From assembly GCA_964578885.1 (NCBI GenBank), contig CAZOEO010000005.1, positions 91,752 through 155,751 of the forward strand: DNA of 64,000 nt. Direction: 5' to 3'. The notes beneath the pieces were generated by a model that saw nothing but the letters and a program-made list of their open reading frames with translations, did not search any database and had not been told where the DNA came from. Of this stretch, positions 1 through 28,086 are shown one piece after another; position 1 is the first letter of the stretch, and the number at the start of each line of letters is the position of its first letter. Position numbers and translations under genes: made by a program. The stretch comes from an uncultured Candidatus Competibacteraceae bacterium. Lineage in GTDB: Bacteria; Bacteroidota; Bacteroidia; CAIKAF01.

Positions 1-543
1 GCCAAAGCCATCGACGAAACCTTTGGCGTCTCCGCTTCCGGCATTCCAAAAGGATTGGTGAACCGGATTCCAAACAACGGCTCCATCGTGATCTCCCATA
101 CCAACTGGGGACAATTGGTCAGCAATCTACTGGCCACACCGCCGGACGCCGACCTGCAAATTCAAGCCAATTACACCCCCTCCGACTCATCTGCCTGTGT
201 TTTTGTAAACGCAAGAGGATTAGGCAATCTTCCTCCAAATACCCGATTGGTGGTCTACTTAACGGAAAACAATTTTATCAACTGGCAAAAAGACTATGAA
301 GCCACGGTAGAAGATATTCCGGACTACAACCACAGCTATATTTTACGCGCTCCGGTAAGCAGCATCTGGGGTTCAGCCATTCCGGCGTCCGCTTTGGCTT
401 CCGGCGCAGATACCACACTTGGGTACGGTATCAAAATAGATCCGGGAAAATGGAATCCGGCCCAATGTCAATTGGTCGCTTTTTTATACAATGATGCTAA
501 CCGGCAAGTGATTCAGGCGGAATCCATGCCACTTGTGCCATAA
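1..543 (+). CDS. hypothetical protein (5' partial; reading frame open to window start)
   Basis: Frame 1 is open from nt 1 through the stop at 543 with no in-frame stop upstream of the first Met at 55. No family recognised. Confidence 0.35.
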   Translation, partial: AKAIDETFGVSASGIPKGLVNRIPNNGSIVISHTNWGQLVSNLLATPPDADLQIQANYTPSDSSACVFVNARGLGNLPPNTRLVVYLTENNFINWQKDYEATVEDIPDYNHSYILRAPVSSIWGSAIPASALASGADTTLGYGIKIDPGKWNPAQCQLVAFLYNDANRQVIQAESMPLVP

Positions 544-546
544 CTT

Positions 547-945
547 ATGTTTCACAAAGTCCTGACAGGATTATTATTCGCACTGTTTCTTTTTGCCGGT
601 TGTGAAAAACCAGCGGGCGAAGGAGGCAATGCCAGTATTCGCGGACGCGTTCTGGTGAAAGATTACAACGCATCCTTTACGGTATTCATACGTGAATATT
701 ATGCGCAAGACCAGCGCGTTTATATTATTTATGGGGATGACCAAGTATATTCCGACGATTTCCGCACAGATTTCAACGGCTGGTATGAATTCCGGTTTTT
801 ACGCCCTGGTCAATATCGTCTTTTTACCTACAGCAAAGACTCCACACTTCAATCTCCTACGCAGCAAGTTCCTGTTTTTGCAGAAGTTACAATCCCTTCG
901 GGCGCATCTGTAGTGAATGCCCCGGATTTGGTCATTTTTGAATAA
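547..945 (+). CDS. hypothetical lipoprotein
   Basis: N-terminal signal peptide with lipobox-like LFAGC. No recognisable family. Confidence 0.4.
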   Translation: MFHKVLTGLLFALFLFAGCEKPAGEGGNASIRGRVLVKDYNASFTVFIREYYAQDQRVYIIYGDDQVYSDDFRTDFNGWYEFRFLRPGQYRLFTYSKDSTLQSPTQQVPVFAEVTIPSGASVVNAPDLVIFE

Positions 946-947
946 GC

Positions 948-1475
948 ATGAACTGTCGTATTCCCCTTCTTTTGATATTGGCGAGCCTTTTGCCATTGCT
1001 TTGTTTCGGACAAGGCAGCGGTAAAAAATCCAGAAAACTGCACCAAATTTCCACTTCCACAGAAACCATTCACGAACCCGCTTTGGGAGGCCCGGTAGTG
1101 CATACCAGCGAAAAAATTTCCTACAACGAACGCGGGGATTGGTACGAGCGAATTTCTTTTAACCGGAGTGGCGATATAACGCGCCGTGAAACCCGCACCT
1201 ACGATGGAAAACGATTGATGGAGGAAACCCTTTGGAATCCAACAGGGAAAAAAGAATGGGTGAGAATCGTGTTCACCTACGACGATAGCGGCTTATGTGT
1301 TGCAGAAGCCGTATTTCGAAAGAAAAAACTACAACATACCGACCGGTTTTTCTATGAAAAAGGATTGCTGGTGAGAGAAGTACGAGAAAACGCGCAAGGG
1401 CGAATCATCCGTGAAAAAAAGTTTGCCTACACCTATTTTGGCTCATCCAATGAACCCAGTGAAGAAACGCCATGA
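948..1475 (+). CDS. hypothetical secreted protein
   Basis: Hydrophobic N-terminal signal peptide (LLLILASLLPLLCFGQ). Start ATGA-coupled to the previous stop. Confidence 0.4.
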   Translation: MNCRIPLLLILASLLPLLCFGQGSGKKSRKLHQISTSTETIHEPALGGPVVHTSEKISYNERGDWYERISFNRSGDITRRETRTYDGKRLMEETLWNPTGKKEWVRIVFTYDDSGLCVAEAVFRKKKLQHTDRFFYEKGLLVREVRENAQGRIIREKKFAYTYFGSSNEPSEETP

Positions 1476-2125
1476 AACCATTATTACTTGCTGAAACCTG
1501 GATGAATGGCCCGGCCGTTCAAATGTTATTGCTTGCCTTTTGCTTTAATCTGTTTTTCCTTGGTTTAAATACACTTTGGTTGTACTATTCACGCAGCCAA
1601 AAAAGAGGATTTGCCTTTTCCTTTCTCACCATTGGTTCCGTAGTATTTATTCTAAGTTATCTACTTGGAGACGGACAACTGGAATTAGGAATGGCGCTTG
1701 GATTATTCGCCATTTTCGGAATTATTCGATACCGAACCCAGCAAATCCCTTTGCGAGAAATGACGCATTTGTTTACGGCCATTGGGATGTCGGTGGTGAA
1801 CGCATTGGGCGGAAAACACCTTTCATTTGCGGAAATTATTTTGGCCAACGTGCTTATTACCGCACTCTTAGTTGTCTATGAAAAATTTCAATTGCTCAAA
1901 AATGAATCTGAACGCACCTTGATTTATGGGCAGATAGAAAACCTGCATCCCAGAAACAGGGAACAGTTACTTCAGGAATTGCGTAGCGTCACTGGCCTGA
2001 ATATTACAGGAGTTACGGTGGTGAAGTATCATCTTCAGAAAAACCAGGCCGTCCTCAAAATCAGATTTTTAAGTCAGGAAGAAGACGATAATGGACTGGC
2101 AGGAGTCGATGATGATGAGGACTAA
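1472..2125 (+). CDS. hypothetical integral membrane protein with acidic C-terminal tail
   Basis: Several predicted TM helices and a DDDED C-terminus. 4-nt overlap with the upstream gene. Confidence 0.4.
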   Translation: MKPLLLAETWMNGPAVQMLLLAFCFNLFFLGLNTLWLYYSRSQKRGFAFSFLTIGSVVFILSYLLGDGQLELGMALGLFAIFGIIRYRTQQIPLREMTHLFTAIGMSVVNALGGKHLSFAEIILANVLITALLVVYEKFQLLKNESERTLIYGQIENLHPRNREQLLQELRSVTGLNITGVTVVKYHLQKNQAVLKIRFLSQEEDDNGLAGVDDDED

Positions 2126-2801
2126 AATATTTCTTTTGGGACTTCTCTTCCCTGCTCTGGTCTCTGGCCAAAGCATGATTCATGACGGCATGTTGTGGAC
2201 AGGAATTCGTTTAAAAAGAACCTGGAATCGCCAATGGGAAAGTCATGTGCACCTGGAACATCGCTGGAACGAAAACATAAGCCAATCACAAAAAGGATAC
2301 CTGCAAGTGGGAACATCCTATTCGCCGCTTCAAGGTATTAGCCTAAACCTCGCATATAGAATCGACGAACGCTTCCGGCTCACGCAAGGGCAGCATCATA
2401 CCCGGCATCGCATTCAGGCCGGAATCACGTTATCCCGAAAAATAAAACGGTTTGAATTTAGTTTGCGTTCACATGGCCAAATGCGCTACGATACTCGTCC
2501 GGACCAGAACATTCCATGGCGGTTTCACCTCAGAGAGCGGTTTAAAATCGAATACAAATGGCCCCAACTTCCTCTAAAAACCGAACTGGGTTATGAAGCC
2601 TGGTTTCCTTTGAATGGAAATGCAGAAACACCCATTTCAAGGCATCGGTTCTCCATCGCACAAGACTGGGAATTCCTGAAAGGGCAGACCCTCACGCTGG
2701 GGCTGATTTATCAGATTAACACGGCTTTTGCTGCAAGAAACCGAGACATTGGACTTCTGGTGCGTTATACTTTCGACTGGAAACCGATGAAAAGGAAATA
2801 G
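2091..2801 (+). CDS. hypothetical secreted protein, possibly an outer-membrane beta-barrel
   Basis: Signal peptide ending SGQ. Alternating aromatic/polar beta-strand-like pattern and Y/F/W-rich C-terminus. Confidence 0.35.
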   Translation: MDWQESMMMRTKIFLLGLLFPALVSGQSMIHDGMLWTGIRLKRTWNRQWESHVHLEHRWNENISQSQKGYLQVGTSYSPLQGISLNLAYRIDERFRLTQGQHHTRHRIQAGITLSRKIKRFEFSLRSHGQMRYDTRPDQNIPWRFHLRERFKIEYKWPQLPLKTELGYEAWFPLNGNAETPISRHRFSIAQDWEFLKGQTLTLGLIYQINTAFAARNRDIGLLVRYTFDWKPMKRK

Positions 2802-2861
2802 CACAAGCGCGCGACCACTACATCCGGGAAAAATGAATCAAGATTCCCTATCTTCGTTTTT

Positions 2862-3230
2862 ATGGAAATGCAAACTTGGCCCATTCTGGCGTTAATTGGG
2901 ATTGCCGCCGGATATTTGAGTGGATTTGTAGGTGTTGGCGGAGGAATCATCATGGTTCCGGCGCTGGTTTACTTTTTAGGTTTATCGCAGCATATGGCGC
3001 AAGGAACCAGTTTGGCAGTGCTGATGGTGCCCGTAGGCATACTCGGAGTATGGAATTATTATCAGAAAGGACAAGTTCATTTTTCTTATGCGGCGGTGAT
3101 TGCCTTATTTTTTGTGGCCGGAAGTTTTTTCGGCTCCAAATACGCTTTAAAGCTAGACGCCAGCATGGTACGTCGCATTTTCGGTATCTTTCTGCTGTTG
3201 GTTTCTGTGAAATTTATACTTGGTAAATGA
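2862..3230 (+). CDS. TauE/SafE (DUF81) family membrane protein, half-size (4 TM)
   Basis: Motifs GFVGVGGGIIMVPALVYFLGL and QGTSLAVLMVPVGILG are typical of sulfite-exporter TauE/SafE repeats. Only one repeat is present. Confidence 0.5.
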   Translation: MEMQTWPILALIGIAAGYLSGFVGVGGGIIMVPALVYFLGLSQHMAQGTSLAVLMVPVGILGVWNYYQKGQVHFSYAAVIALFFVAGSFFGSKYALKLDASMVRRIFGIFLLLVSVKFILGK

Positions 3231-4420
3231 CACAAGACCCAGCCGTATTTTTAGCCGAGTTCCAGAAAAATGCGGAAACATGGACCCGGATTAGGGAACA
3301 ATTGCATCGTTATCCTGAGCTTTCCTTTCAAGAAGAAAAAACGGCAGCCTTCCTTTCGGACATGCTTACCAAATGGGGCATTGAACATCAGACAAAGGTG
3401 GGAGGACATGGCATTGTCGCCATTTTAAACGGAACCGCTCCAGGGCCATGCATCGGACTTCGTGCCGATATGGACGCACTCCCCATTCAAACCGCCTTAA
3501 AAACACCTTACGCTTCGCAGCATAACGGATGCATGCACGCCTGTGGACATGATGTACACATGACGTCGTTGTTGGCGGCCATCCATTGGTTACACCAACA
3601 TCGGGATCTATGGAAAGGAAGTGTGAAAGCGATTTTTCAGCCGGGTGAAGAAAAACTTCCCGGCGGAGCCACATATATAATCGAAGCCGGTGTTCTGCAG
3701 GAACATCCAAGACCTGAATGGATGATGGCCTTGCACGTAGCACCAGATTTACCAATCGGTCATTTTGGATTCCGTTCCGGACCGTATATGGCTTCTACAG
3801 ACGAGTTATATTTCACGTTGAAAGGCACTGGAGGGCATGCGGCCTTACCTCATTTACTGACCGATCCCATTATGGCGGCGGCCCGGCTCATCCTTCAGCT
3901 TCAGGACATTCCCGCGAGGTTCGCACCACCGGACGTGCCCACCCGCTTGTCCATTGGACGAATCGACGCACCCGGCGCCACCAACGTGATTCCCGCAGAA
4001 GTGAAGTTGAGCGGAACATTCCGGACCTTTGACGAAACCTGGAGAGCAAAAGCACATCAACATATCAAAGATTTGGCGAAGTCCATTGGTGACCAGCATG
4101 GTCTCACCATAGACGCTGAAATCCTGTCCGGATACCCATCCTTGAAAAATGATCCAAAATGGACAGAGCAAGTGCGAGAAAAAGCGATTCATCTGGTCGG
4201 CCAAAACGCCGTGCATGATTTGCCCATTCGCATGACGGCAGAAGATTTTGCATGGTATGGAACGCATGTGCCCATTGTGTTTTTCCGTTTAGGCACATCC
4301 AATCAAAAGCCGGAAACCCGTTTTTCTGTGCACCATCCTTCTTTCGACGTAGATCCTGCTTCGCCATGTTATGGAGGCGCCATATTAAGCTGGCAGATTT
4401 TACATTTTTTAAAAAAATGA
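3227..4420 (+). CDS. M20D family amidohydrolase (N-acyl-L-amino acid amidohydrolase / hippurate hydrolase-like)
   Basis: Metal-binding motifs MHACGHD and QPGEE plus the overall M20 peptidase architecture. Start overlaps the previous stop. Confidence 0.8.
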   Translation: MTQDPAVFLAEFQKNAETWTRIREQLHRYPELSFQEEKTAAFLSDMLTKWGIEHQTKVGGHGIVAILNGTAPGPCIGLRADMDALPIQTALKTPYASQHNGCMHACGHDVHMTSLLAAIHWLHQHRDLWKGSVKAIFQPGEEKLPGGATYIIEAGVLQEHPRPEWMMALHVAPDLPIGHFGFRSGPYMASTDELYFTLKGTGGHAALPHLLTDPIMAAARLILQLQDIPARFAPPDVPTRLSIGRIDAPGATNVIPAEVKLSGTFRTFDETWRAKAHQHIKDLAKSIGDQHGLTIDAEILSGYPSLKNDPKWTEQVREKAIHLVGQNAVHDLPIRMTAEDFAWYGTHVPIVFFRLGTSNQKPETRFSVHHPSFDVDPASPCYGGAILSWQILHFLKK

Positions 4421-4448
4421 ATATTTTATCCGCCTAATTCACCCCTTT

Positions 4449-6068
4449 ATGACATCCAAAACTTTCATTGCCTTACTTAGCTTGAGCTTATTTTGCTCAA
4501 ATTCAGCTTACTCCCAAAAACACAAGGTATCTTTCGGAGACAAACAAAAAGTGTCGAAAGCAGACGGCCGAACGCCCGGACCCATTTTGGGCGGAACAGA
4601 AAATGGCAGTTATCAACTTCGATATCAGTATAACTACACGTTTCTTCTGTTTTTCACGCTGGTAAAGGTGAATCCCATGCTGGCGTTATTGGACGCAGAA
4701 TCCATGTCGCTCAAATGGTCCAAACCCATTCTCACCAAAGAAGACTTGCCGGAAGACATCCGTGTTCCGGAAAGCTATTCTTCGCTGGAAGTTGTTGGCG
4801 ACAAGATTTTTGCGGCCTTTAATCGGTACGACGCCAAGTCGAAAACATTTGAAGTATACGCCTTTTATTTGAATGCCCAAGGAAAAAAGATGGGGAAAGT
4901 CACCCGAATTCATCGGGAAAAAGTAAATAACTGGACGGGTGTAGGCGATGTCGACATCGTCTTTTCGGAAGATAAAAAGCACTTTTTATTTTTCTACAAG
5001 GAAGAGAGCGGCAGAAAGGAAGAAGAATCTTATACATTCAAAATCTTTACCCAGGATTTGGAGCTTGCGCACACCCGCGAGGTTACTTTCCCTGTTCAGG
5101 ACCGATATTTCCTGTTTAATCAGATTGCTTTAGCCAACGACAAAGAGGTGTATATCAGCTCTTCCGTATATGACGATGAAGAAAACAACAACGACGGCAA
5201 AAGAAAGAAACGGGTAAAATCCAAAACCGGATCATGGGTAATCCACCTGTTCAGCTTCCGGATGGATGAAGAAACCGAGGGAGAAATCAAAGATTTGGAA
5301 TTGAATTTAAAAAGTCGGTATGTCACGAGTGCCCGCTTTAAACTAACCGACGAGCGGGTGATTGCCAGTGGCTTCTACGGGAAAAAGCCGGGAACAGTAA
5401 ACGGTGTTGTATCCTTAATTTATGACCGGGAAAAAGATGAGATCATTCGCGACGATATGGAAGAGTTACCGGCATCTACCCTGGCAGATTTCGGAAAATC
5501 AAGCCAAAAAGCCGGGAAACTCAGTGCCAATAACATGTTCATTAAAGACTTGTCGATTAGCAAGGACGGTTCATATTATATGTTAGGTGAGCAATATTAT
5601 GTGGTGGAAGTGACGCGCACCAGCAGCAATGGATTTATTTATACGGATTATTATTACCATTACAACGACTTGCTGCTTACCAAAGTAGATCCAAACGGTG
5701 ACATCGCATGGTCGCACCGGGTAGGAAAAAAGTCCTATACCAGAATTGAAAACAATCTTGGATATGGATGCTATATGCACCATAACAAAGAGACCGACAT
5801 GGTGTATTTGGTATTCAATGACAATCCGGATAATTTCAAGCTCATCCAGGATGGCAAGTTCAAAACAACCACATATGGATCTAGCCATGTGGTGTCGGTG
5901 AATGTGAGCCCGGATGGCAAAATGACGAAAACGTTACTTTGGAACAATAAGGAGAAAAAGCTCCTTTTCCATCCAGAATTATCCAGCCAGGTTTCGGCCG
6001 CCTCCGCCTTTTTGGCTTGTCAGCGCGGCAGAAATTCCAGCACGGTCACGGTGACGTTCGCTCAATAA
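4449..6068 (+). CDS. hypothetical secreted protein
   Basis: N-terminal signal peptide, 539 aa. No recognised domain. Confidence 0.45.
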   Translation: MTSKTFIALLSLSLFCSNSAYSQKHKVSFGDKQKVSKADGRTPGPILGGTENGSYQLRYQYNYTFLLFFTLVKVNPMLALLDAESMSLKWSKPILTKEDLPEDIRVPESYSSLEVVGDKIFAAFNRYDAKSKTFEVYAFYLNAQGKKMGKVTRIHREKVNNWTGVGDVDIVFSEDKKHFLFFYKEESGRKEEESYTFKIFTQDLELAHTREVTFPVQDRYFLFNQIALANDKEVYISSSVYDDEENNNDGKRKKRVKSKTGSWVIHLFSFRMDEETEGEIKDLELNLKSRYVTSARFKLTDERVIASGFYGKKPGTVNGVVSLIYDREKDEIIRDDMEELPASTLADFGKSSQKAGKLSANNMFIKDLSISKDGSYYMLGEQYYVVEVTRTSSNGFIYTDYYYHYNDLLLTKVDPNGDIAWSHRVGKKSYTRIENNLGYGCYMHHNKETDMVYLVFNDNPDNFKLIQDGKFKTTTYGSSHVVSVNVSPDGKMTKTLLWNNKEKKLLFHPELSSQVSAASAFLACQRGRNSSTVTVTFAQ

Positions 6069-6200
6069 TTTCCCCGGATCATCCGGATCAGGCCCCGTAC
6101 AGGTTTTCTTGTACGGGGCTTGTTGTTTGGCGACAGTGGTAACCGATGAAAGCCTTGTTATTACGAGTATCCCAGATAGAAAAGCTGGAATTTCATGGGG

Positions 6201-6440
6201 CGAACCGATTTTAATCGTTTATAATCGTTTATACACGATTAATAAACGAATCGTGTCGGGCGTTTGTCGTAGCTTGTCCACGGGGAGGGGTGGGTGCAAC
6301 CCGGGGGTCGCACAAGGTCCTTCATCAAAGAGGTTTACCCGATGATTCAGGCGTTTGAAAAAATCCGTTGGAAAACATTCAGGTGAACTATCTCGATCAC
6401 CAGCAGATTCACCAATGGAAGGCCTTTACAGGATTTTTCA
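6201..6440. repeat. copy A of a ~230-bp dispersed repeat family
   Basis: Near-identical stretches shared with 7330-7565, e.g. cgtttataatcgtttatacacg and ttgtccacggggaggggtgggtgcaacccgggggtcgcacaagg. Confidence 0.6.
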
Positions 6441-6504
6441 AAGGCAAAAGTAAAATCATCCTTTTTTTGTTCCTTTGGGCTTCATAAACTAAGCCGCTTT
6501 TTAT

Positions 6505-6849
6505 ATGAGTCAATTGCCCGTCTGTCCCAAATGCCAATGCGAATACACTTACGAAAGCAATAATCAGGTGGTGTGCCCCGAATGTTTTTATGAATGGGAC
6601 CCCACAATACAATCAAACGAAGACGAAGAGGTTTCGGCGGTGGTGTTAGACGCCAACGGGAATGCGCTTCAAAACGGTGATGCTGTAATCATAATCAAAG
6701 ACTTGCCCGTGAAAGGTGCTCCCAAACCGTTAAAAGCAGGAACCAAGGTGAAAAATATCCGCCTGACAGACGGTGACCATAACATCAGCTGTAAAATAGA
6801 TGGTTTCGGGTCCATGGCACTCAAATCAGAATTTGTAAAAAAGGCTTAA
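6505..6849 (+). CDS. phnA: PhnA/YjdC family zinc-ribbon protein
   Basis: N-terminal CPKC...CPEC zinc ribbon. C-terminal segment [36 protein letters not shown] is near-identical to E. coli PhnA (YjdC). Confidence 0.85.
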
Positions 6850-7146
6850 GATCAGCGCTTTATCTTCTCTTCCCTTTATCGCACCGGGGTTTGGGTTTCC
6901 CGTATTTGAGTTTCATCAAATCGGCCCGGCGCATTTTTGGCTTCCCATTTTGTTTTTTCTTTTTTCTCTTGATAAGCCTCGCCCACATGATTGCATTGGG
7001 GAATCCGTAACGAAATGTTTTTCATCCTGTATGGCGGAAGAGCTTCCAGACCCGGCCACTTTAGTACAACAAATGTCGTACTAAAAAAATTACAAGTAAC
7101 TTACAATGAGTAAGTTATCAAAAGGACAAAAAACAAATAAGTCATC

Positions 7147-7250
7147 AAAGAGATTGACCCAATCAGTCAGACGTTTGAAAAAATCCGTCTGGAATCACCC
7201 AAGTGAACCATCTCAATCACCAGCAGAGTTACAAATGGAGGGACTTCGTT
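7147..7250. repeat. partial copy C (3' ~100 bp) of the repeat family
   Basis: Matches the 3' portion of copies A and B: gtttgaaaaaatccgt...caagtgaaccatctcaatcaccagcaga.t.acaaatgga.gg. Confidence 0.5.
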
Positions 7251-7329
7251 AAACATCCTTCCTGTAAAAAGAAATCTCTTGAGGACAGCGGAGTTGGTGC
7301 TCCGTTTCATCTGGAATTTTCTTCGCTCA

Positions 7330-7565
7330 GTCCAGAACCGATTTTAAACGTTTATAATCGTTTATACACGGTTAATCACCGAATCTTATCGGGTGTTTGT
7401 CGTAGATTGTCCACGGGGAGGGGTGGGTGCAACCCGGGGGTCGCACAAGGTTCTTCATCAAAGAGGTTGATCCGATGATTCAGGCGTTTGGAAAAATTCG
7501 TTTGGAAATATACAAGCGAACCATTTGGATAACCAACAGAATCACAAATGAAAGGCCTTTCCCGG
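7330..7565. repeat. copy B of the ~230-bp repeat family
   Basis: High nucleotide identity to 6201-6440. Its 3' end supplies the last codons of the methyltransferase gene on the minus strand. Confidence 0.6.
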
Positions 7566-8165
7566 ATCTTTTCGGGCCAATAGACGCACCACACGTCCTT
7601 CTCCTGCATGTCCCACGCCTTCATTCAAGTGCAGGGTTTGAGTGGCAAGATACATGATTTCTAAACCTTCAAAATCTAAACGCAACATCTCAGGAGTAAA
7701 CAGCATGTCGATGTCTTTCGGGCCGCCACTTGAAAAGGACACTTGATCTACATGAAATCCTTCTAACAACAGCCATCCGCCTGGTTTGAGCCAGGAAATA
7801 TATTGCGTATGTATTTTTTGCCGGATGTCTTTGGGCAGATGAAGATAAATGGATGCAATTAAATCGAACTGTGATTCCGGAAACGCAACAGACTCCATAG
7901 AGGCGAGCATGTATTGAAGGGATTCTCCATAATGCCCCCATTGTTCCAGGGCATGTTTTCTTGCGATTTCGCTTTGATCGGCGGCGGTTACTTTCCAGCC
8001 GTTTTGAAGTAAAAAACCTGCATTTCGGCCTTCACCTTCTCCGGGTAAAAAAGCATTGCCCGGCCTTGTATTACGCTGTTTCACGAAATCTGCCAACCAC
8101 TGGTTGGGTAAAATCCCATATAAATGAGGTACTTGCGTAAAACGTTGGTCCCAAAATGCTTTCAT
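7542..8165 (-). CDS. class I SAM-dependent methyltransferase (TehB/TPMT-like)
   Basis: Rossmann-fold MT motifs (LLPGEGEGRNAGFLLQNGWKVTAADQS, DLIASIYLHL). 207 aa. Confidence 0.7.
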   Translation of the reverse strand: MKAFWDQRFTQVPHLYGILPNQWLADFVKQRNTRPGNAFLPGEGEGRNAGFLLQNGWKVTAADQSEIARKHALEQWGHYGESLQYMLASMESVAFPESQFDLIASIYLHLPKDIRQKIHTQYISWLKPGGWLLLEGFHVDQVSFSSGGPKDIDMLFTPEMLRLDFEGLEIMYLATQTLHLNEGVGHAGEGRVVRLLARKDPGKAFHL

Positions 8166-8493
8166 AAAAAATAGTCTAGAACGATAGGTACGATGGCAGA
8201 AAGAGTGAGCCTCTTGCCCAATCGTGTTTAATTTTTAAATGTACAACATAATAAACCATTTATATGAAGAATGGTTTAAAAACACATGTTGTTTTAATAA
8301 ATCTCCTGATCTTCTGAGAGAGGGTTTCCTCGGGTGGTGCGCCAGGGGGTGAAGCAGAAAGCCCGGAATGCGCTAAAGAATACGCAAAGAAAATCATGCG
8401 TGCTTTGGCGCATGAGGACTTTTCGCGTAAGACCCGATGCCGCCGAAAAAGTACTCGGCAGGAAAAACAATACGGGCGGCAGGCGCCAAAAAA

Positions 8494-9735
8494 TTAAACG
8501 TTTTGAATCGCCGTGCTAAACTGGCTTTTCTCGAGGGCCTGGACCGCAAATTCGCGGGTGAGGGTAAAGGTGTGGTCCGGTTTTTCGGGAGCGTCGAACA
8601 TGACATCGTTCATGATGGCTTCGCAAATGGACCGCAAACCGCGTGCGCCAAGTTTATAGGCCATGGCACGTTCAACGATTTCATTTAGTGCTTCTTCTTC
8701 TACCACCAGCGTAATGCCGTCGATGGCCAAAAGGCGCTGGTACTGACGAATCAGTGCATTTTTGGGTTCGGTAAGTATGCGTCGCAGGGCATCGGCATCC
8801 AGCGGATCCAGAGAGGCCACCACCGGCAAACGACCGACGAGTTCGGGAATAAGTCCGAAGTTCTTGATATCCTGTGGATTCACATACTGCAGCAAACTTT
8901 CACGCTGTAAAACGGCTTGGGTTTTTCCGGAATTAAATCCGATGGATTGCCGGGATAATCGGTCGGAAATACGGCGTTCAATGCCGTCGAATGCTCCGCC
9001 ACAGATAAAGAGAATTTGCCTTGTATCTACGGCTATGAGTTTTTGTTCCGGGTGCTTTCGTCCGCCTTGTGGTGGAACTTGAATAACAGACCCTTCCAGA
9101 AGTTTTAATAATCCTTGCTGTACGCCTTCTCCGGACACGTCCCGGGTAATGGAAGGATTATCTGACTTACGGGCAATCTTGTCTATTTCATCAATAAAAA
9201 CAATGCCTTGCTCTGCCTTTTGGACATTGTAATCGGCGGCTTGCAGGAGGCGAGAAAGGACACTTTCCACATCTTCTCCCACGTAACCGGCTTCAGTAAG
9301 TACGGTGGCGTCGGCGATACAAAAGGGTACATTGAGCATTTTGGCGATGGAACGGGCCAACAGGGTTTTTCCAGTTCCCGTTTCACCGATTAAAATCACG
9401 TTTGATTTTTCGATTTCCACGTCCTCGTCCTTCGTGGGTTGCGCCAAACGTTTGTAATGGTTGTAAACGGCCACGGAAAGTACGCGCTTGGCTCTGTCCT
9501 GACCAATAACGTATTGGTCTAAATGGGCTTTAATGGCAGAAGGCCGTAAGGTATTGAGGGCCGATTCTACCTTTTTGGATTCATTTTCCCTGAGGTTCAT
9601 GGCCACGATATCGCGGGCTTGTTCTACACATTCATTACAGATATTCCCTTCCGGACCGGTGATGAGTAGGTTCACGGCATGTCGGGGGCGCAGACAGAAG
9701 GCGCAATGGTCCTCTTTTCTGGAGTTTTTAGCCAT
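8494..9735 (-). CDS. clpX: ATP-dependent Clp protease ATP-binding subunit ClpX
   Basis: N-terminal C4 zinc finger (CAFC...CNEC), Walker A GETGTGKT, ClpX-specific motifs. Conserved tig-clpP-clpX order. Confidence 0.95.
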
Positions 9736-9810
9736 TGGAGACGTTAAAAACGTGGATAAAAGATTAATCCACCGCCCGAAAAAAGAGCGGTGGATTAAAC
9801 ATGGTAAAAA

Positions 9811-10488
9811 TTAGGAATTATGCTGTTTCAGCAATACTTCGTCGATCATGCCGTATTCTTTGGCTTCCTGGGCAATCATCCAGTAATCGCGATCGGAGTC
9901 TTTCTCGACTTTATCGAAAGGTTGTCCGGAATGGGTGGCAATGATGTCGTACAATTCTTTCTTGAGTTTACGCACTTCGTTCACGGTGATTTCCATGTCG
10001 GAAGCTTGTCCTTGTGCTCCGCCCATGGGTTGGTGAATCATGACGCGTGAGTGTTTTAGACCTGTCCGTTTTCCTGCGGCACCGGCGCAAAGAAGCACAG
10101 CGCCCATAGAAGCGGCCATGCCAACGCAAATGGTGGCCACGTCCGGACCAATCCATTGCATGGTGTCGTAAATACCCAATCCGGCATAAACTGAACCACC
10201 TGGACTATTGATGTAAATCTGGATATCGCGTTTGGCGTCTGCACTTTCTAAAAAGAGCAATTGGGCCTGAATAATATTGGCGATATAATCGTCGATGGGC
10301 GTTCCAAGAAAGATGATGCGATCCATCATCAAACGTGAAAATACATCTACTTCCCTGAAGTTAACGGGCCGTTCTTCGATAACGGTACGCGTCATGCCCT
10401 GAATCTGACTGGTGTAGTTTTCAAGGTGCATGCTGCTGATTCCGCGGTGCTTTACGGCGTACTTTTTAAATTCATCGTGTGGAAACAT
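9811..10488 (-). CDS. clpP: ATP-dependent Clp protease proteolytic subunit ClpP
   Basis: Ser-His-Asp serine protease signature region (AASMGA..., HQP). The longest ORF extends to 10545, but the conserved N-terminus begins at [11 protein letters not shown] (10488). Confidence 0.9.
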
Positions 10489-10592
10489 GGCTGCAAAATT
10501 TGATGTAATGCTAAGAAAAAGTGCCGACCCTGCAAAAGTCGGCACGTGAATAAATCAAAAACAGAAAATCTTGGAAATGGTTTTGAAGGCCA

Positions 10593-11957
10593 TCAGGCTT
10601 CTGCGGTTTCGCGTGATTCCTGGATTTGTTTGAACTCTTCTACCGAAATATCTTGTTCGGTTACACCGATTTGCTGACGCACTTTGTCCACGGTACGGGC
10701 TTCAAGAATCGACATGTACAGGCGATCTGCTTCGGCGCGGTTAGAAAGGAATCGGTCTGTTACGGCATCCAAACGATCGTCTGGCAAAGCGTAACCGACT
10801 TCCATCATGCGACGGCGCATCATTTCGCGTGCTTCTTCTCTCAATGTTTCAGCGGAAACTTCCACTTCCATTTTCTGAGCGAGTTTGCTGCGTAAAATTT
10901 CCCAGGTAAAGCTTTCCTTGTAGCTATCCCAATTGGTTTCCACTTCGTTGGGATTAAAATCTTTGTTGTCGCGATTAGAAATGAGCAACCAACGTTTCAG
11001 GAAGGCTTCAGGAATGTCCAACGGATTGAGTTGACGCAGTCTCTCGCGAAGTTGCGTCATTAGCATCATATTGGATTGGTTTTGGTCGTTGGACACGATA
11101 TAGCGACCAATGGCCTCTCTAAATTGGTTTTCGTCCTGAATATTTCCTTCGCCAAACACTTCGTCGTAAAAAGCCTGGTCGATGGTGGCCGGCATTCTGC
11201 GGCTAATTTTAGAAATAAAGAGTTGGGCAGACTCAGGAAGTTGAGCGATTTCTTCTTCGCTTCCGAGGCTAAGATACACGGAAGTGGCGCGTGCATCGGC
11301 GAATAGATTGGTCAATGGCAGGGTTACGGTATCACCGGAAGCTTTGCCGAGCAATGCCGCTTTCCCTTCTTCACTTTCGATGCGCGCCATGGGAATGTAG
11401 ATTCCGGCGTTTCTTTTCTCTTCGCCTTCTGCATTGGTGTATACCAGTTCTCCGAATACAAAGTCATCGGCTTCCACGGTGTCTACGTCCACTGCATTTC
11501 CATATTCCTTAGCCAGTTTCTCGATTTCCTGTTCGATAAGGTCCGGATTGGGTTGTACACGGTAGTGAATGAACTCGCCGCCTTGTGGCAGAATGGGATC
11601 TACTTCGGGCATGAATCCGATATCGTATGCAAATTCGAAAGAAGTGTCTTTGTCCCAGTCGATAGGAAGTTGGCTGGCGGAAGGCAGAGGTTCACCGAGG
11701 TATTGGATTTTTTGTTCTTCGATATAAGCGAACAACTTATCTACGGTGAGTTTTCCGATTTCGTCGGAGAGAACTTGTTTGCCGTACATTTTTTGAACCA
11801 TGCCGGCGGGAACTTTTCCGGGACGAAAGCCGGGCATCGAAACTCTGTTTCTCAGTGTTTTGAGTGCTTTGTCTACGACATCCCGATAATCTTCCTGTGC
11901 TATTTTAATGCGAATGACGCCGTTAAGGGCGTCAATATTTTCCCGGGTAATTTCCAT
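10593..11957 (-). CDS. tig: trigger factor
   Basis: N-terminal ribosome-binding motif GFRPGKVP. Central PPIase-like domain and C-terminal chaperone domain. Sits upstream of clpP-clpX. Confidence 0.9.
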   Translation of the reverse strand: MEITRENIDALNGVIRIKIAQEDYRDVVDKALKTLRNRVSMPGFRPGKVPAGMVQKMYGKQVLSDEIGKLTVDKLFAYIEEQKIQYLGEPLPSASQLPIDWDKDTSFEFAYDIGFMPEVDPILPQGGEFIHYRVQPNPDLIEQEIEKLAKEYGNAVDVDTVEADDFVFGELVYTNAEGEEKRNAGIYIPMARIESEEGKAALLGKASGDTVTLPLTNLFADARATSVYLSLGSEEEIAQLPESAQLFISKISRRMPATIDQAFYDEVFGEGNIQDENQFREAIGRYIVSNDQNQSNMMLMTQLRERLRQLNPLDIPEAFLKRWLLISNRDNKDFNPNEVETNWDSYKESFTWEILRSKLAQKMEVEVSAETLREEAREMMRRRMMEVGYALPDDRLDAVTDRFLSNRAEADRLYMSILEARTVDKVRQQIGVTEQDISVEEFKQIQESRETAEA

Positions 11958-11987
11958 GGGTGAGTGCTTGGTACAATGTTAAAAGAG

Positions 11988-12069
11988 TGCGGATGAAGGG
12001 ACTCGAACCCCCACGCCTTTCGGCACCAGATCCTAAGTCTGGCACGGCTACCAATTACGCCACATCCGC
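11988..12069 (-). tRNA. tRNA-Leu (anticodon TAG), long variable arm
   Basis: Reverse complement folds as a cloverleaf: GCGGATG acceptor stem, anticodon loop CTTAGGA, long variable arm, GGTTCGAGTCC T-loop. No encoded CCA. Confidence 0.85.
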
Positions 12070-12135
12070 AAAACCGTAAAACAACGGGGGGCAAATATAC
12101 GCTTTTTCGGAATAGAAAAAGAAAATGCAGAATTT

Positions 12136-14415
12136 TTAACGAGCAGTGGCTGGTGTACCTTGTGGAATTCTTTGTTTCAGGCTTCGCCGGGTCATTCTCT
12201 TCACAGCTGGCTTGCCCATCTGACCGCCTATTTCATCCATATAGGTATGTACTTTTCTACCTTTTTCCAAATCGTAGACCTGGTACATCCAAATGTTATA
12301 GGTGGGTCGTTTTAAAGCGTTAATGATAAAAACCGGGGTTAAATAAGGGAGAAAAACGCTGAGCAATACCGCTCGTCCAATGGCTCCTTTCGCAGGATAG
12401 CGCATCCGCAACAATTTCATTTCAGCCAAATGCGAAACGCCCATATTTCCAAAAATCCGCAGGGATTCTTCCTGAAAAAGAGGCCACATCTGGATTTTAT
12501 TGGTTTCATTGAATCGGATTTGCCTAAAATATTGTTGAGCATAAAACGTCCGATTCAGGTTTGTTGCATTAAATTCTGGTGAAAGGGTATTTGAAAGAAC
12601 GGAAACAGTCGCAGGAAACTTCGGACTGCTTAATTCACTCAGGTATTCATGCATCCAATGGGTATTGTTTTCGGACAAGTCATACAACTCCAATGGTTCA
12701 TCCTGCTTTCGCCGCAATTCCAGTTGGGTACTTTGCGGACGAACCACCAGCAGGTGCTCTGGCAAGATGGTGGGCGGACGCTTAAACATAGAGGAACGGG
12801 GCTTTTTATTTTCCTCTGCGGCCGCCAGGCTCGCCTTAAGGTCAGCCATAAAAAACAAAGACAGAAACTCGTTGTCTCGCATTTCCTCTTGAAATCCGTA
12901 ATACAAATACAGTGGTTCCCCGGAAGATGAACCTTTTCTGACATGGGCTTTTCCGGAGGAAAGGGTGTCAGTGCCATGGTCGCGGCTCAATGGCAGATTT
13001 CCCGTTTTAAATCGTTCAAAAGTAAATTTCGTGTGACGCATCAGCTGGAAGGCCAGATCTTCAGCGATACGCTTCAATTCAGCACTTTCCGGAAAATCCT
13101 TTTTTGCCGTCCAGGCATGTTTCAGTGCCAAAAGGAGCAATTCTTCGCGCTGTAAATTGTGAAAAGCAGCCATGAGTTTTTGCTCTTTTCCTTCTGCTCT
13201 TTCAGGCGCCCAATGCACTTTGCCGAATCGGCGCTGGGCATGGGCAGAAGCCAGAAGATATAGAGCACGCACCTGTGTTAAGGTGAGGAAATATCCTTTT
13301 TCGTAGCGGGTTTCGAGGCTTTTCGCGTGATAAAAGGCCAATTCAGGACGGTGATCTTCCAGATACAACATGCCAAGTTCATATTGTGCGATTTTTCTGG
13401 CATGAAAAAATTCAGTTTCATCCGCTACAAAAAGTGATGTACCGAACGTCTGGGTGGAGTCGGTCATTTTTCGGATGGCGGCCAGTCTAAGTCCTACGTC
13501 CGGATGGCTGGCATAGCTCCGCTCGTCGGCGTCGGCTAATTTTGTAGAATCCGGAGTATCGGAATTGGATTTTTTCGTCTGGCGGTCTTTTATTTGAGGA
13601 AGCGCCCAGATTTTTTCCGGGATTTGCAGTTGTCCGAGGCTGAGCCATTCTGGTTTTACTTCCAGCGAATCTACTGGCTTTTCAGCTTGTTTCAGCATGT
13701 AAAAAACCTCATGTACGGCTGAAAGGGCGTAGGGAGATTTGCGAAAAATATTGAAACCGGCCAAATCGGCTTCGGTTTCCAGGGCGCGGGAAAATTTTGA
13801 ACTTTCCAGGCGAAGTAAATCGGCCGCCTGGTCCTTGGGGACTCGTCTCCTGGCCTGTTCGTCTTCCGCATTTCTGCGCACGGATTGAATGGCATGCTGG
13901 TGTTTTACATGGATGTATTCGTGGCAAAGGATAAAAGCGAGTTCGGCTTCGGTTTTGAGTCGAGCCAGAAGACCCAGAGAAACAATTATATACCCTTGTC
14001 GGGTAGCAAAAGCATTCACCACCGGCGATTTCAACACATAGACCTTTATGTGATCCGGCACTGTTTCGCCAGCCAATACTGTTCTTAAAACCAGATTACA
14101 ATATTGGCCAACAGGATCATTGTACACAATGCGTCCGGAAGCCATCAGCCGATCGATTTCATGCGTAGAATGGCGTAAAAACTCCTGTTCGGCCAGGGCC
14201 ACTCTTTGTTTTCGCTTTGACCCCGTGATGGGACTCATTTCGGCTTTCGCTCGTGCGGTGGAGGAAACGTGTAAAAAGTCTGGAAGAGGATCTACCGACT
14301 CCAGGCTTGTATAATAGTTAAAATCAGTGCCCTGAGCTGAAATCCTCCCCGATGGAAAGGCCAAAGTCAAGAGTAAAAAAGCAGAAAAATATTTTTTAAA
14401 TGAGAAGCAATTCAT
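12136..14415 (-). CDS. secreted putative zinc metalloprotease (HEXXH; M48-like)
   Basis: Signal peptide. HEYIH zinc-binding motif in the context ILCHEYIHVKHQH. 759 aa. Confidence 0.45.
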   Translation of the reverse strand: MNCFSFKKYFSAFLLLTLAFPSGRISAQGTDFNYYTSLESVDPLPDFLHVSSTARAKAEMSPITGSKRKQRVALAEQEFLRHSTHEIDRLMASGRIVYNDPVGQYCNLVLRTVLAGETVPDHIKVYVLKSPVVNAFATRQGYIIVSLGLLARLKTEAELAFILCHEYIHVKHQHAIQSVRRNAEDEQARRRVPKDQAADLLRLESSKFSRALETEADLAGFNIFRKSPYALSAVHEVFYMLKQAEKPVDSLEVKPEWLSLGQLQIPEKIWALPQIKDRQTKKSNSDTPDSTKLADADERSYASHPDVGLRLAAIRKMTDSTQTFGTSLFVADETEFFHARKIAQYELGMLYLEDHRPELAFYHAKSLETRYEKGYFLTLTQVRALYLLASAHAQRRFGKVHWAPERAEGKEQKLMAAFHNLQREELLLLALKHAWTAKKDFPESAELKRIAEDLAFQLMRHTKFTFERFKTGNLPLSRDHGTDTLSSGKAHVRKGSSSGEPLYLYYGFQEEMRDNEFLSLFFMADLKASLAAAEENKKPRSSMFKRPPTILPEHLLVVRPQSTQLELRRKQDEPLELYDLSENNTHWMHEYLSELSSPKFPATVSVLSNTLSPEFNATNLNRTFYAQQYFRQIRFNETNKIQMWPLFQEESLRIFGNMGVSHLAEMKLLRMRYPAKGAIGRAVLLSVFLPYLTPVFIINALKRPTYNIWMYQVYDLEKGRKVHTYMDEIGGQMGKPAVKRMTRRSLKQRIPQGTPATAR

Positions 14416-23980: not shown

Positions 23981-25498
23981 TCAACTATGGGAAGAAAGGG
24001 TTGATTGAAGCGCAATAAGGGCTTCTGCCATGATGCGCTGGTCTGCCAAACGCGGCACTTTATGCTGCCCCCCAAGTTTTCCTTCCGCTTTCATGTAAGC
24101 CTGAAAACTTCCCGGTTGTAATGGTAAAATCCGAAGGGGACGCGTTACTTTACCATCTATCAAATCTTTGTAATACACATTTCTCCGACACATAGCCCGA
24201 TCCAAGGCCAGGGCAAAAGCATCCAAATCAGTGGGCAATCGATCAAATTCTACCAGCCAATCATGGCCGGGCAAGCCCCCTTCCTCTGGCTGAACAAGCG
24301 GCGCCACATGAAATTCGCGGACGGTCGCCTCACTTTCGACCAATACTTCCTGCATGGCGCCTTCCACTTCTTCGGCGATCACGTGTTCTCCAAACGCTGA
24401 AATAAAATGTTTGATTCGTCCCGTCACTACAATTCTGTAGGGATTCAATGAAACAAACTTGACCGTATCGCCGATGAGATAGCCCCATAAACCTGCATTC
24501 GTGTGCAAAACAATCGCATAATTTTCGCCAAGCTGTACGTCTGCTAAAGCATAACGAGTCGGCTGAGGAAGATGTGCTTCTTTTATCGGAATAAATTCAT
24601 AAAAAATACCCACCCAGGTTTGCAGCAAAAGGCCAGGTTTTTCCTGTTCGTCCTGAAAAGCGATAAAACCTTCACTTGCGGGATATGTTTCAATCGTTTT
24701 TACAGATTTACCAAGACTTTCTTCAAATTTTTTTCGGTAAGGCGAATAATTCACACCTCCATATACGTAAAGACTGAGATTCGGAAAGATTTCCCTGACA
24801 TTCTTTTTACCAGTAACGGTTAAAAGCCGATCCAGATACATTTGGGCCCAGGAGGGAATTCCTCCGATTAAACGCATGTCTTGCTTCACCGTTTCGCGAA
24901 CAATGGCATCGAGCTTGGTTTCCCAGTCATCAATACAATTGGTTTCCCAGGAAGGCAACTGATTTTTCCTAATCCAGCCCGGAATATGATGGTTTACAAT
25001 GCCTGAAAGTCTGCCGGTGAGAATGCCTCCTACTTTTTCCAACACAGGACTTCCGGATAAAAAAATCATGCCACCATCAAAAGCACTGGCGTCGCCGGTT
25101 TCCGCCACATAACAGAACACAGCGTTTCGAGCCGATCCCACATGGAAAGGCACGGAATCTTTGGAAATGGGAATCAGTTTGGTTCCACTGGTGGTTCCGC
25201 TGGTTTTGGCAAAATATAAAGGCTTTCCGGGCCAAAGCACATCCGATTCACCCGCTACCACACGAGAAATGTAGGGCCGAAGCTGTTCATAATCGGCCAC
25301 AGGAATCTGCGCTTTAAACGAATCGTAGTCCCGAATATTCTGAAAATGATGGTCCCGGCCGAAGGCTGTGTTTTTTGCCTTTTCAACCAGACGATGGCGA
25401 AGTTGCTGCTGATCTAACAGTGCCCGCCTTGCTTTTCTCCGTATTCCGGCCGCCATTAAGCGCGCCAGAGGCAATATTAATGCTGATTTCCAACCCAT
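23981..25498 (-). CDS. GH3 auxin-responsive promoter family protein (acyl-adenylate forming)
   Basis: N-terminal FGRDHHF and the adenylation motif YFAKTSGTTSG-TKLIP are characteristic of GH3/ANL-superfamily homologues. Confidence 0.75.
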   Translation of the reverse strand: MGWKSALILPLARLMAAGIRRKARRALLDQQQLRHRLVEKAKNTAFGRDHHFQNIRDYDSFKAQIPVADYEQLRPYISRVVAGESDVLWPGKPLYFAKTSGTTSGTKLIPISKDSVPFHVGSARNAVFCYVAETGDASAFDGGMIFLSGSPVLEKVGGILTGRLSGIVNHHIPGWIRKNQLPSWETNCIDDWETKLDAIVRETVKQDMRLIGGIPSWAQMYLDRLLTVTGKKNVREIFPNLSLYVYGGVNYSPYRKKFEESLGKSVKTIETYPASEGFIAFQDEQEKPGLLLQTWVGIFYEFIPIKEAHLPQPTRYALADVQLGENYAIVLHTNAGLWGYLIGDTVKFVSLNPYRIVVTGRIKHFISAFGEHVIAEEVEGAMQEVLVESEATVREFHVAPLVQPEEGGLPGHDWLVEFDRLPTDLDAFALALDRAMCRRNVYYKDLIDGKVTRPLRILPLQPGSFQAYMKAEGKLGGQHKVPRLADQRIMAEALIALQSTLSSHS

Positions 25499-25501
25499 TG
25501 G

Positions 25502-26383
25502 TTAAAATTGAATCATGGATTCCGGATCCAGGGGAGTCCCATTGAACCAAAGCTCAAAATGCAAAAATGGGCCTTTTCCCTGTTCCAGGGATTTTCCGGC
25601 AATACCAATCGGTTCTCCGGCACGAACAAAACTGCCCACTTTTTTCAATAAAGTAGCATTATTCTGATAAATAGACACCAGATTTCCAGGATGTTGAACC
25701 GCCAGGACATAACCTGTTTCGGCGGTCCATCCGGCAAAAACCACCGTACCTTCCAGACAAGCCAACACAGGAGATTCCTCCGAGGTCATCACGTCTACGC
25801 CAAAATCTTTGGTTTCCCGCTGAAAGGGAGAAATGACTTTTCCCCGTAAAGGCGGAAAGAAGAGCATGCCTTCCAAGGCATTGTTTTGCTGAATCCTGGG
25901 CTGAACAGTAAAGCGTTCTTCTTCCTCTACGGCTTCTCTCAACTGCGCTTCTGCACGACTTATCCGATTCACCGGTTGTACCAAACGAAGTGCGGAGTCA
26001 GGTTTTTCCGGCATCGGTTCTTCCCACTTTTTTCCGCTGGCCACTTGCTGAAAAACCATGAGTAAACGCGCCTGATCTAACATCGCTGCTTCTAGAGAAT
26101 CTGCCGTTTTAGAAAGGGAACGTACCAATTTGCGCTGCTCCACGTCGGCGTAACCGGGAATATACTCGCGCAGCCCCGTGAAAGCCACCAAATAAAGGGT
26201 GAGACTCACCATCACCAACACGAGAAAAGAAAGTACCACCACAATGTTCCAACCAGAAAGCCGAAAGGTGTATTTGGCCTCGTAATGGTCGTCGTGCATC
26301 ACCAAAATCCGATACCGATACTTCCATTTCTCGAAAAAGTTGGGTTTGGCGGGACGATGCGCTTTTTTTTGTGCCATAAACAA
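25502..26383 (-). CDS. M23 family metallopeptidase
   Basis: N-terminal TM anchor. C-terminal LytM motifs (HPGNLVSIYQN..., PFLHFELW). Confidence 0.75.
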   Translation of the reverse strand: MFMAQKKAHRPAKPNFFEKWKYRYRILVMHDDHYEAKYTFRLSGWNIVVVLSFLVLVMVSLTLYLVAFTGLREYIPGYADVEQRKLVRSLSKTADSLEAAMLDQARLLMVFQQVASGKKWEEPMPEKPDSALRLVQPVNRISRAEAQLREAVEEEERFTVQPRIQQNNALEGMLFFPPLRGKVISPFQRETKDFGVDVMTSEESPVLACLEGTVVFAGWTAETGYVLAVQHPGNLVSIYQNNATLLKKVGSFVRAGEPIGIAGKSLEQGKGPFLHFELWFNGTPLDPESMIQF

Positions 26384-27409: not shown

Positions 27410-27768
27410 GATTCAGGCTGGTCCTTCTCGTTGCGGTCCAACAATTGGGAGATGCGGTCGGCGTAGGCGGCAGAATCGTCATGGAAGAAGGCCAGTTCCG
27501 GCACAATGCGAAGTTGATGACGCAGTTTCTGACCGAGGATGTAGCGGATTTTCGATTTGTTGTCTTCGAGTTTTTCCATGACGGCCGGGGCGGGTTCTTT
27601 GCCAAAAATGCTGAAATAGACTTTGGCAAAAGAGAGGTCTGGAGACACGCGCACCACGGTGGCGGTAACCATGCTACCGGGTGAAACCCAAGCGAGGTCA
27701 CGAAGGATAAGTTCACCGATTTCTTTGAGAATCAGTCTGGCTACTTTTTGTTGTCGCGTGGTTTCCAT
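27406..27768 (-). CDS. rbfA: ribosome-binding factor A
   Basis: METTRQQKVARLILKEIGELI... matches the RbfA KH-like fold family. Start refined to the Met at 27768. Confidence 0.85.
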   Translation of the reverse strand: METTRQQKVARLILKEIGELILRDLAWVSPGSMVTATVVRVSPDLSFAKVYFSIFGKEPAPAVMEKLEDNKSKIRYILGQKLRHQLRIVPELAFFHDDSAAYADRISQLLDRNEKDQPES

Positions 27769-28014: not shown

Positions 28015-28017
28015 CAG

Positions 28018-28050: not shown

Positions 28051-28086
28051 TGTTTTGAAAGTGACTATGTATTGCTACTCCAAAGG

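Follow-up and report, generated by a model that had tools for sequence, protein, structure and literature searches.

Several bacterial small RNA (sRNA) genes occur as tandem duplicates, including LhrC1-4 of Listeria, the NsiR1 repeats of Nostoc and PrrF1/2 of Pseudomonas. We analyzed a 64,000-nt stretch of contig CAZOEO010000005.1 (the window, always taken at its full length), from an uncultured bacterium placed in the Bacteroidota, in which three direct repeats (units A, B and C) lie at the 3' end of a methyltransferase (MT) gene and flank a phnA gene. Two of the units contain a conserved noncoding element of ~95 nt, which we called E. E resembled the tandem sRNA genes in forming a conserved block of ~100 nt that lay head to tail with less conserved spacers, at a period of 271 nt in a close relative (contig L011) and ~313 nt in the window. 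One strand of E also had a small loop with a C-rich tract and the other a hairpin and U run, and its copy number varied between close species. On the other hand, E differed from these genes in having neither a recognised promoter nor an Rfam match, in its little conserved secondary structure and in its conflicting strand clues.

The array as a whole also resembled other described systems. As in segmental duplications with a templated or illegitimate insertion, its direct repeats flanked DNA from another locus that ended inside a truncated helicase gene, its duplicated unit began inside a neighbouring gene, and no recombinase was encoded. It differed from them in that the repeats were old, at 13-20% divergence. 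Elements that integrate into a gene's 3' end classically leave a direct duplicate of the target gene's end, an identical core and an orphan tail relic at the far repeat. The array shared with the attL/attR sites of elements that target gene or tRNA 3' ends a duplicated MT 3' end, an identical core and foreign DNA in between, but it lacked an integrase, its insert measured only ~0.9 kb, its homology ran along the whole unit, and a relative had tandem copies free of any insert. Like repetitive extragenic palindromes (REP) and bacterial interspersed mosaic elements (BIME), E was found between convergent genes, downstream of stop codons, in tandem clusters and in a genus-specific manner; however, REPs are strong palindromes of 20-40 nt present in hundreds of copies along with RAYT transposases, whereas E was asymmetric and weakly structured and occurred only twice in 64 kb, at this locus. 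Similarly, like integron attC arrays and clusters of attC sites lacking integron integrases (CALINs), the array alternated conserved repeats with variable spacers, one of them holding a promoterless foreign gene. Unlike attC sites, E was on inspection not an imperfect palindrome and its C-rich box had no G-rich partner, the array had no R''/R' boxes (RYYYAAC/GTTRRRY) and no IntI, and its "cassette" ended in a gene fragment.

We mapped the repeat copies by a repeat search and blastn within the window and compared the locus with ~600 kb of fetched related loci. Copies A (6202-6438) and B (7335-7571) were 87% identical over 237 ungapped nt by both methods, in agreement with the near-identity described in the initial annotation, and the similarity continued more weakly to ~6185-6452 and ~7311-7578. 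The third, partial copy noted there was real as well: copy C (7142-7246) was 81% identical to A and 77-83% identical to B, and consisted only of the module adjoining the MT stop codon (module 1), with the E part absent. The GC-rich core common to A and B was also found as described; a 44-nt sequence occurred exactly at 6274-6317 and 7407-7450 only, with 0 matches in 100 shuffles, and the identical run around it was 45-46 nt long. By segment, A and B were 97% identical in an AT-rich box (the AT box), 98% in the core and 73-82% in the remainder. The core lay ~105 nt away from the MT stop, and the MT-tail portion was 73% identical between A and B. All three units had the same orientation and internal order and lay head to tail, each opening with MT-tail sequence followed by module 1, with a B to C spacing of 313 nt. 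The unit boundary fell inside the MT coding region, ~35 nt before the gene end, and the duplicated segment comprised the last ~35 nt of MT and ~230 nt downstream.

Copy B covered the last 7-12 codons of the minus-strand MT gene (...LARKDPGKAFHL*), as had been noted, and the same register could be read as a relic in copies A and C (Table 1), the former having also been recognised earlier. The initial annotation offered two explanations for this, a segmental duplication or an inserted element that supplied the MT tail. MT orthologues were found on L011 by a scan of a genome collection (86% protein identity) and on L030, a contig of a related species, by protein search (78%). The MT proteins of the window, L011 and L030 all ended in ARKDPGKAFHL, while more distant homologues stopped ~6 residues earlier. 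Since DPGKAFHL* was kept in the orthologues, the tail is a native, lineage-specific part of MT, and since the tandem repeats of L011 exclude the MT end, the repeated tails derive from MT, with relics of it left in A and C. Each unit opened with the MT tail, decayed in A and C, and the units thus duplicate a segment that starts ~35 nt inside the gene. These observations speak for the segmental duplication, with three units alike in order and orientation, and against an element having supplied the tail. The window MT protein was encoded on 20 metagenome contigs of the same species with an identical layout in all. The small open reading frames (ORFs) predicted within the repeats belonged to no Pfam family and had no homologues, and their frames were broken in other species, which bears out the earlier view that they are mere translations of the repeat. 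A six-frame translation of the repeat had no match among 5.8 billion proteins, a search that was uninformative with only ~10 codons conserved.

Between the repeats we found only phnA, a helicase relic and a 95-nt filler. The initial annotation had an orphan "phnA/yjdC" bracketed by the repeats; an intact PhnA gene does lie between A and C/B, with both the N-terminal zinc ribbon and the C-terminal YjdM domain in its product, and its proper name is yjdM rather than yjdC. Its closest homologues, with 87% amino-acid identity, were encoded on four contigs (L061-L064), with an epimerase gene on one side and a convergent gene for a DEAD-box helicase on the other. The nucleotide alignment with these contigs began 5 nt past the epimerase stop, spanned phnA and entered the helicase 3' end for 200 nt; the DNA at 6850-7046 is a helicase pseudogene fragment. 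Small-ORF calls at 6860-6988 and 6876-7025, within the helicase relic, are likely spurious. The other genes common to this lineage and the window encoded proteins with only 32% (M28 peptidase) and 57% (RpiB) identity. Since the fragment was 81% identical at the nucleotide level while the neighbouring proteins were only 32-57% identical, the alignments suggest that the phnA fragment has a separate and probably horizontal history. A third lineage carried phnA in yet another context. The initial annotation had called for a comparison with strains lacking phnA; L011, from a close relative, had no phnA at the MT locus and carried tandem E repeats there. No gene within 10 kb of the array encoded a recombinase, transposase or integrase Pfam domain. 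A randomly truncated gene at one end, together with the absence of a recombinase, indicates an illegitimate, homology-facilitated or template-switch insertion and not transposition by the repeats. The earlier suggestion that the repeats mobilised phnA is therefore correct in that phnA moved into the locus, but it did so within a ~590-bp fragment with a truncated helicase end and not by means of the repeats.

On the minus strand, the array reads MT with unit B, unit C, the filler, the helicase relic, phnA in reverse orientation, unit A and the terminator of an upstream gene. The filler had no match in any fetched locus. On its minus strand it contained an AT-rich hairpin followed by T7 (7081-7119), which was terminator-like but was not called by the terminator scan. 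The gene adjoining the array at the other edge (4449-6068, plus strand) encodes a protein of 539 aa whose N-terminus resembles a signal peptide and which belongs to no Pfam family; in the fetched portion of the L011 contig we found no homologue of it.

Table 1. Features of the repeat array and its borders in the window.
Feature	Position	Strand	Basis and content
MT, class I SAM-dependent methyltransferase, 207 aa	7542..8165	-	ORF; Pfam Methyltransf_25/11; last ~12 codons (7542-7578) open unit B
Repeat unit B (complete)	7311..7578	-	In minus-strand order: MT 3' end, module 1 (7455-7541), element E, short shared CTGGAATTT (7311-7319)
Element E, copy B	7335..7451	-	nhmmer profile match 7446-7352, E=1e-25; segment identities
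Repeat unit C (partial)	7142..7262	-	MT-tail relic (...TKSLHL*) and module 1 only
Filler, 95 nt	7047..7141		Between unit C and helicase relic
Transplanted fragment	6461..7046	+	blastn, 592 nt aligned with L061-L064 at 81% identity; holds phnA with 44 nt preceding it and the convergent helicase 3' end
DEAD-box helicase relic, last ~65 codons, one frameshift	6850..7046	-	Alignment, translations, tblastn; abrupt end at 7046
phnA/yjdM, 114 aa, intact	6505..6849	+	PF08274 (E=4e-10) and PF03831 (E=4e-33); 87% amino-acid identity to P0122
Repeat unit A (complete)	6185..6452	-	MT-tail relic LPLKNPVKAFHW* (6409-6447), module 1 (6322-6408), element E
Element E, copy A	6202..6318	-	nhmmer match 6313-6219, E=3e-24; core identical to copy B
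Intrinsic terminator of upstream 539-aa gene	6089..6122	+	15-bp stem, then T run; outer edge of array

The MT end and the DNA downstream of it were duplicated head to tail, so that the minus strand carries the units in the order B, C, A. MT itself is the original, and the MT-tail copies in A and C are decaying. A fragment of ~590 bp from an epimerase-phnA-helicase locus replaced the E part of the middle unit; it presumably entered by illegitimate, homology-facilitated or template-switch recombination and probably came from another lineage. We infer the order of duplication and insertion, the repeats being old, at 13-20% divergence. We consider it highly probable that the repeats are old local head-to-tail segmental duplicates of the MT end and its downstream DNA and that, jointly, phnA arrived as described. 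This repeat history is ordinary genome evolution, a tandem duplication followed by the insertion of a foreign fragment. The best overall explanation, which comprises the repeat origin, the capture of phnA and a role of E as RNA, is one that we hold with moderate confidence.

Within the repeat, E is an older conserved noncoding element, and our model of it was built on seven distinct copies found in four lineages. Read in the MT sense, it consisted of a 4-bp hairpin (GGGY-TRC-RCCC), a box 1 (CCCACCCCTCCCCGTGRMCAAKCTA), a variable stretch of ~35 nt and an AT box (GTATAAWCGATTAAAA, also written TATAAWCGATTAAAA) that was nearly palindromic, and partly duplicated in the window copies. A small CGGW-N5-WCCG hairpin lay in the variable middle, and the distance between box 1 and the AT box was fixed at 35-36 bp. 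In copy B the first hairpin was window-specific (GTGCGACC/GGTTGCAC) and box 1 read CCCACCCCTCCCCGTGGACAATCTA; the ~35 variable nt that followed included a CGGT/ACCG hairpin and led to the AT box. The L011 DNA downstream of MT could not be aligned with the window apart from three short matches, which were E copies arranged in tandem with a 271-nt period over 2.3 periods. L030 carried one E copy, 95 nt past the MT stop, and the contig ended inside it. A metagenome scan with the conserved motif identified a single copy in a fourth lineage, at an unrelated locus (contig L029). There, E followed a large gene for an exported-looking protein without a Pfam family and a strong terminator, and was convergent with a histidine-phosphatase gene; none of the L029 genes had a homologue in the window. 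The AT box was palindromic at 12 of 14 positions in L011 and was a perfect palindrome in L029 (CCGTTTAAAACGG).

Identity between lineages was 82-97% in box 1, 62-88% in the AT box and 44-66% in the middle, and the flanks of E could not be aligned between species. MT coding DNA was ~77% identical among the lineages bearing E. Since the same pattern was seen between lineages and between the window paralogues, and conversion alone is insufficient to account for it, the alignment argues for selection acting on both boxes in both window copies. The 11 contigs of the species were too poor in strain polymorphisms for constraint to be measured. Module 1 and the MT relic were specific to the window species, and only the ~95-nt E was common to other species. 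The L011 array has no MT tail and the rest of the window unit is species-specific; therefore, the amplifications in the two species were independent and occurred around the same element. L030 (1041) and L031 (1273) are independent short contigs of related species that both ended inside E. Since assemblers end contigs in this way at tandem repeats, tandem E arrays are probably also found in these two species.

A few other features were noted near the E copies. In L030, a 16-nt direct repeat (gaaatgcggtcattga, present twice at 866-915) lay between the MT stop and E. GC-rich short repeats, CTCGGCTACGCTCGGG / GAGCGTAGC(C/T)GAG, adjoined E at two unrelated loci (L011 7680-8000 and L029 ~900-1010) and may be a separate intergenic repeat family of these organisms. 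At 7341-7344 in the AT box of unit B, strains differed by a clustered change, TTTAAAATCGG versus TTTATACACGG (L001-L003, L006, L008), and this difference looks like a short conversion tract from the neighbouring AT-box half-repeat.

We searched for E beyond these loci. By blastn and nhmmer there was no further repeat copy in the 64-kb window or in the ~600 kb of related loci, apart from the orthologous site and the E in L029. Exact 20-23-mers of the window core had no match in genome, metagenome or viral contigs, but this pattern reached into the lineage-variable hairpin and was unable to match even L011. A degenerate box-1 pattern gave one metagenome match and no viral match; the metagenome collection was incomplete, as L030, a JGI contig bearing the motif, was not returned by the scan. 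Matches of a 15-mer to viral contigs (27) were all attributed to chance by the nhmmer profile, and blastn against phage and plasmid sequences found no match. A literature search for the motif retrieved no paper. With Rfam 15, only two tRNAs passed in the window, and nothing relevant was found at E<=10 over the repeats of the window, L011 and L029 on either strand; the Rfam comparison proposed for the core in the initial annotation thus yielded no family. E is best filed as a sparsely sampled, previously undescribed conserved intergenic element absent from Rfam.

The reading frames of E were not conserved, as the sole shared frame had on inspection a stop codon in L030 and in L011 copy 3. On the G-rich strand, a perfect GGAGG resembling a Shine-Dalgarno (SD) sequence was followed 5 nt later by a GTG that opened ORFs of 76 aa (7427-7657, plus strand) and 30 aa (6294-6386, plus strand). 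We rejected small peptides as products of E, since neither these GGAGG ORFs (30 aa in A, 76 aa in B) nor a 28-aa ORF in the MT sense were conserved in L011, L029 and L030. Bacteroidota mRNAs generally have no SD sequences, and strong SD-like sequences are thus unusual in the phylum (PMC6847099). A G-quadruplex or i-motif was also rejected, the four G/C tracts being present in the window copies only.

The first of the readings that we weighed for E is that it acts as RNA, a tentative proposal that ranked first among those considered. E could be a small RNA or part of a 3' untranslated region (3'-UTR) that would expose the C-rich CCCUCCCC tract on the MT-sense strand, or it could be an sRNA of ~80 nt on the opposite strand that would end in a hairpin and a U run; in either case tandem copies would increase the RNA dosage. 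In each of the two 4-bp hairpins one base pair had changed in a compensatory way, C-G to U-A in one and U-A to A-U in the other. Hairpin cells were paired in 93% of cases, versus 23-50% in slid controls, and the observed values were reached by 7 to 21 of 500 shuffles. In the window copies, an extended hairpin included a G-U pair when read in the MT sense, and this strand folded better there than shuffles did (z-scores of -2.3 and -3.7). On the opposite, G-rich strand, a hairpin with a T run was called at all three L011 copies and was seen by eye in L029 and L030 as well; by the scan, this terminator was weak or absent in the window copies. The idea of a functional core that may encode an RNA, the latter raised in the initial annotation, has gained support from the conservation across species and is still a tentative one.

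Several observations weighed against E being an RNA. The Bacteroidota promoter, taken as TTTG-N19-TAnnTTTG in accordance with earlier use (PMC6847099, PMC9723704), was not conserved beside E on either strand, although promoters for alternative sigma factors may exist. Outside the window, E folded no better than shuffled sequence on either strand (z-scores of -1.0 to +0.4). The strand clues were in conflict, since the G-U pair pointed to the MT-sense strand, while the T runs, as well as a U-G wobble found in two copies, pointed to the other. As there were seven copies in four lineages, only one or two events underlie each covarying pair. A protein-binding DNA site would account about as well as an RNA for a pair of invariant blocks kept at a fixed spacing, one of them the palindromic AT box.

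We also looked at promoter motifs elsewhere in the window and at other promoter types. Textbook TTTG-N19-TAnnTTTG promoters (27870-27906, plus strand, and 12099-12092, minus strand) preceded both tRNA genes in the window and reveal the type of promoter that this organism employs. An exact TAnnTTTG (TACTTTTG, 6452-6445, minus strand) lay where unit A meets the phnA fragment and pointed into A, possibly by chance, with 37 such motifs in the window. A sigma-54 promoter at E was rejected, as the GG-to-GC spacing was 9 nt and not 10 and the GC was absent in the window, and ECF-type and sigma-70 promoters were rejected for want of a conserved -35 element.

The closest competitor, which we judged unlikely but ranked directly below the RNA element, was that E is a DNA site bound by protein; it could be an operator, a site of recombination, an architectural site or a roadblock where genes converge. 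Under this explanation, the AT box (TAATCGATTA / TAAACGTTTA) would bind a dimer and the asymmetric box 1 a second factor, and tandem copies would add sites. Such a site would agree with two invariant blocks at conserved spacing around a variable middle, with the palindromic AT boxes of L011 and L029, with the little thermodynamic structure of E outside the window and with the lack of a promoter. It would also agree with the coincidence of the array with a foreign-DNA insertion and with a synteny breakpoint between congeners. L011 comes from a close relative of the window organism (ClpP 98% and ClpX 95% identical); its positions 3-6620 matched window 14163-7546 and its positions 8033-12621 matched window 24021-28612, and the genes after its array corresponded to the GH3, M23 peptidase and radical SAM genes of the window (24021-28612). 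Synteny thus broke exactly at the repeat array (window ~7546 and ~24021; L011 6620-8033), which implies an inversion or translocation of ~16.5 kb. However, no E copy was present at the second breakpoint (window ~23.95 kb), an observation that also led us to reject an inversion through recombination between inverted E copies. Neither a recombinase or transposase nor an obvious regulator was encoded within 10 kb, GC skew showed no terminus-like switch at the array, and covariation of two small hairpins is not required of a double-stranded site. A replication terminus, Ter or dif site, suggested by the convergent genes and the synteny break, was rejected because GC skew had no switch and the motif was unlike dif.

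The L011 record (CAZRHR010000031.1) is titled 'Candidatus Competibacteraceae' (Gammaproteobacteria), yet its ClpX and ClpP are 95-98% identical to those of the window, which uses Bacteroidota-type promoters; either the bin label or the binning of the contig may be wrong.

A more speculative reading, to which we give little credence, is that E is a functional element not described before, in an uncultured Bacteroidota lineage. It could be an sRNA family whose invariant CCCACCCCUCCCC / GGGGAGGGG tract would mimic or sequester an (anti-)SD-like sequence, in a phylum that otherwise avoids SD sequences. Alternatively, it could be a recombinogenic site with recurrently amplifying arrays that would lie at synteny breakpoints and capture pieces of foreign genes with no integrase of their own.

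The remaining explanations ranked well behind the RNA element and the DNA site. That the repeats are neutral tandem duplicates, their core conserved by gene conversion and recent common ancestry, is improbable. Adjacent units make conversion plausible, one AT-box strain polymorphism resembles a conversion tract, and the identical 46-nt run has a chance of ~4% at a uniform 13% divergence, which is not overwhelming. However, intragenomic conversion cannot explain why box 1 is better conserved than MT DNA across four lineages with unalignable flanks, and the E copy at the unrelated L029 locus is left without an explanation. The initial annotation had contrasted an element family with a purely local duplication, in which the repeat is confined to the locus and relatives show a simple tandem duplication. 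The findings came close to the latter, as relatives were tandemly duplicated at this locus too, yet the core also occurred at the unrelated L029 locus.

Equally improbable is that B and A are attL/attR-like remnants of site-specific integration into the MT 3' end, by which a now decayed island would have brought in a replacement MT tail along with E and left phnA as leftover cargo. The direct repeats with the target gene 3' end, a 45-nt identical core, an orphan tail relic at the far repeat and the foreign DNA between them would all suit such an event, but neither an integrase nor an excisionase was found between or beside the repeats. In addition, the insert was only ~890 bp, the cargo ended in a randomly truncated helicase gene, and the A-B homology extended over ~260 nt at a uniform ~80% and was not confined to the core. 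The partial unit C is better explained by tandem duplication, the three E copies of L011 had no insert between them and no MT tail, and viral, phage and plasmid collections contained nothing similar.

A MITE-like nonautonomous mobile element of ~230 bp inserted at the MT end and elsewhere, which the initial annotation had considered, is very improbable: the size (~230-260 bp), the several nearby copies and the noncoding nature are apt, but the repeat search found no inverted pair linking the two ends of A or of B and so no terminal inverted repeats, only a local AT palindrome, there were no target-site duplications around the units and no transposase or integrase nearby, neither the 64-kb window nor the ~600 kb of loci held a copy outside the locus, the unit includes the conserved tail of MT itself with only E common to other species, and the searches with core 20-23-mers and with box 1 in genome, metagenome and viral collections gave the single metagenome match.

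These results have several consequences for the annotation of the locus. The small ORFs inside the repeats are spurious, and the helicase pseudogene fragment at 6850-7046 is easily missed. phnA should be regarded as a transplanted and probably horizontally acquired gene that lies outside any phosphonate operon or mobile element. The locus offers a dated example of a tandem array beside a gene that absorbed a foreign fragment. E has been kept in at least four lineages and amplified independently in two, and with seven known copies it is a lead; a role as RNA or as a binding site, if borne out, would make it a new regulatory element of a poorly studied group of uncultured Bacteroidota.

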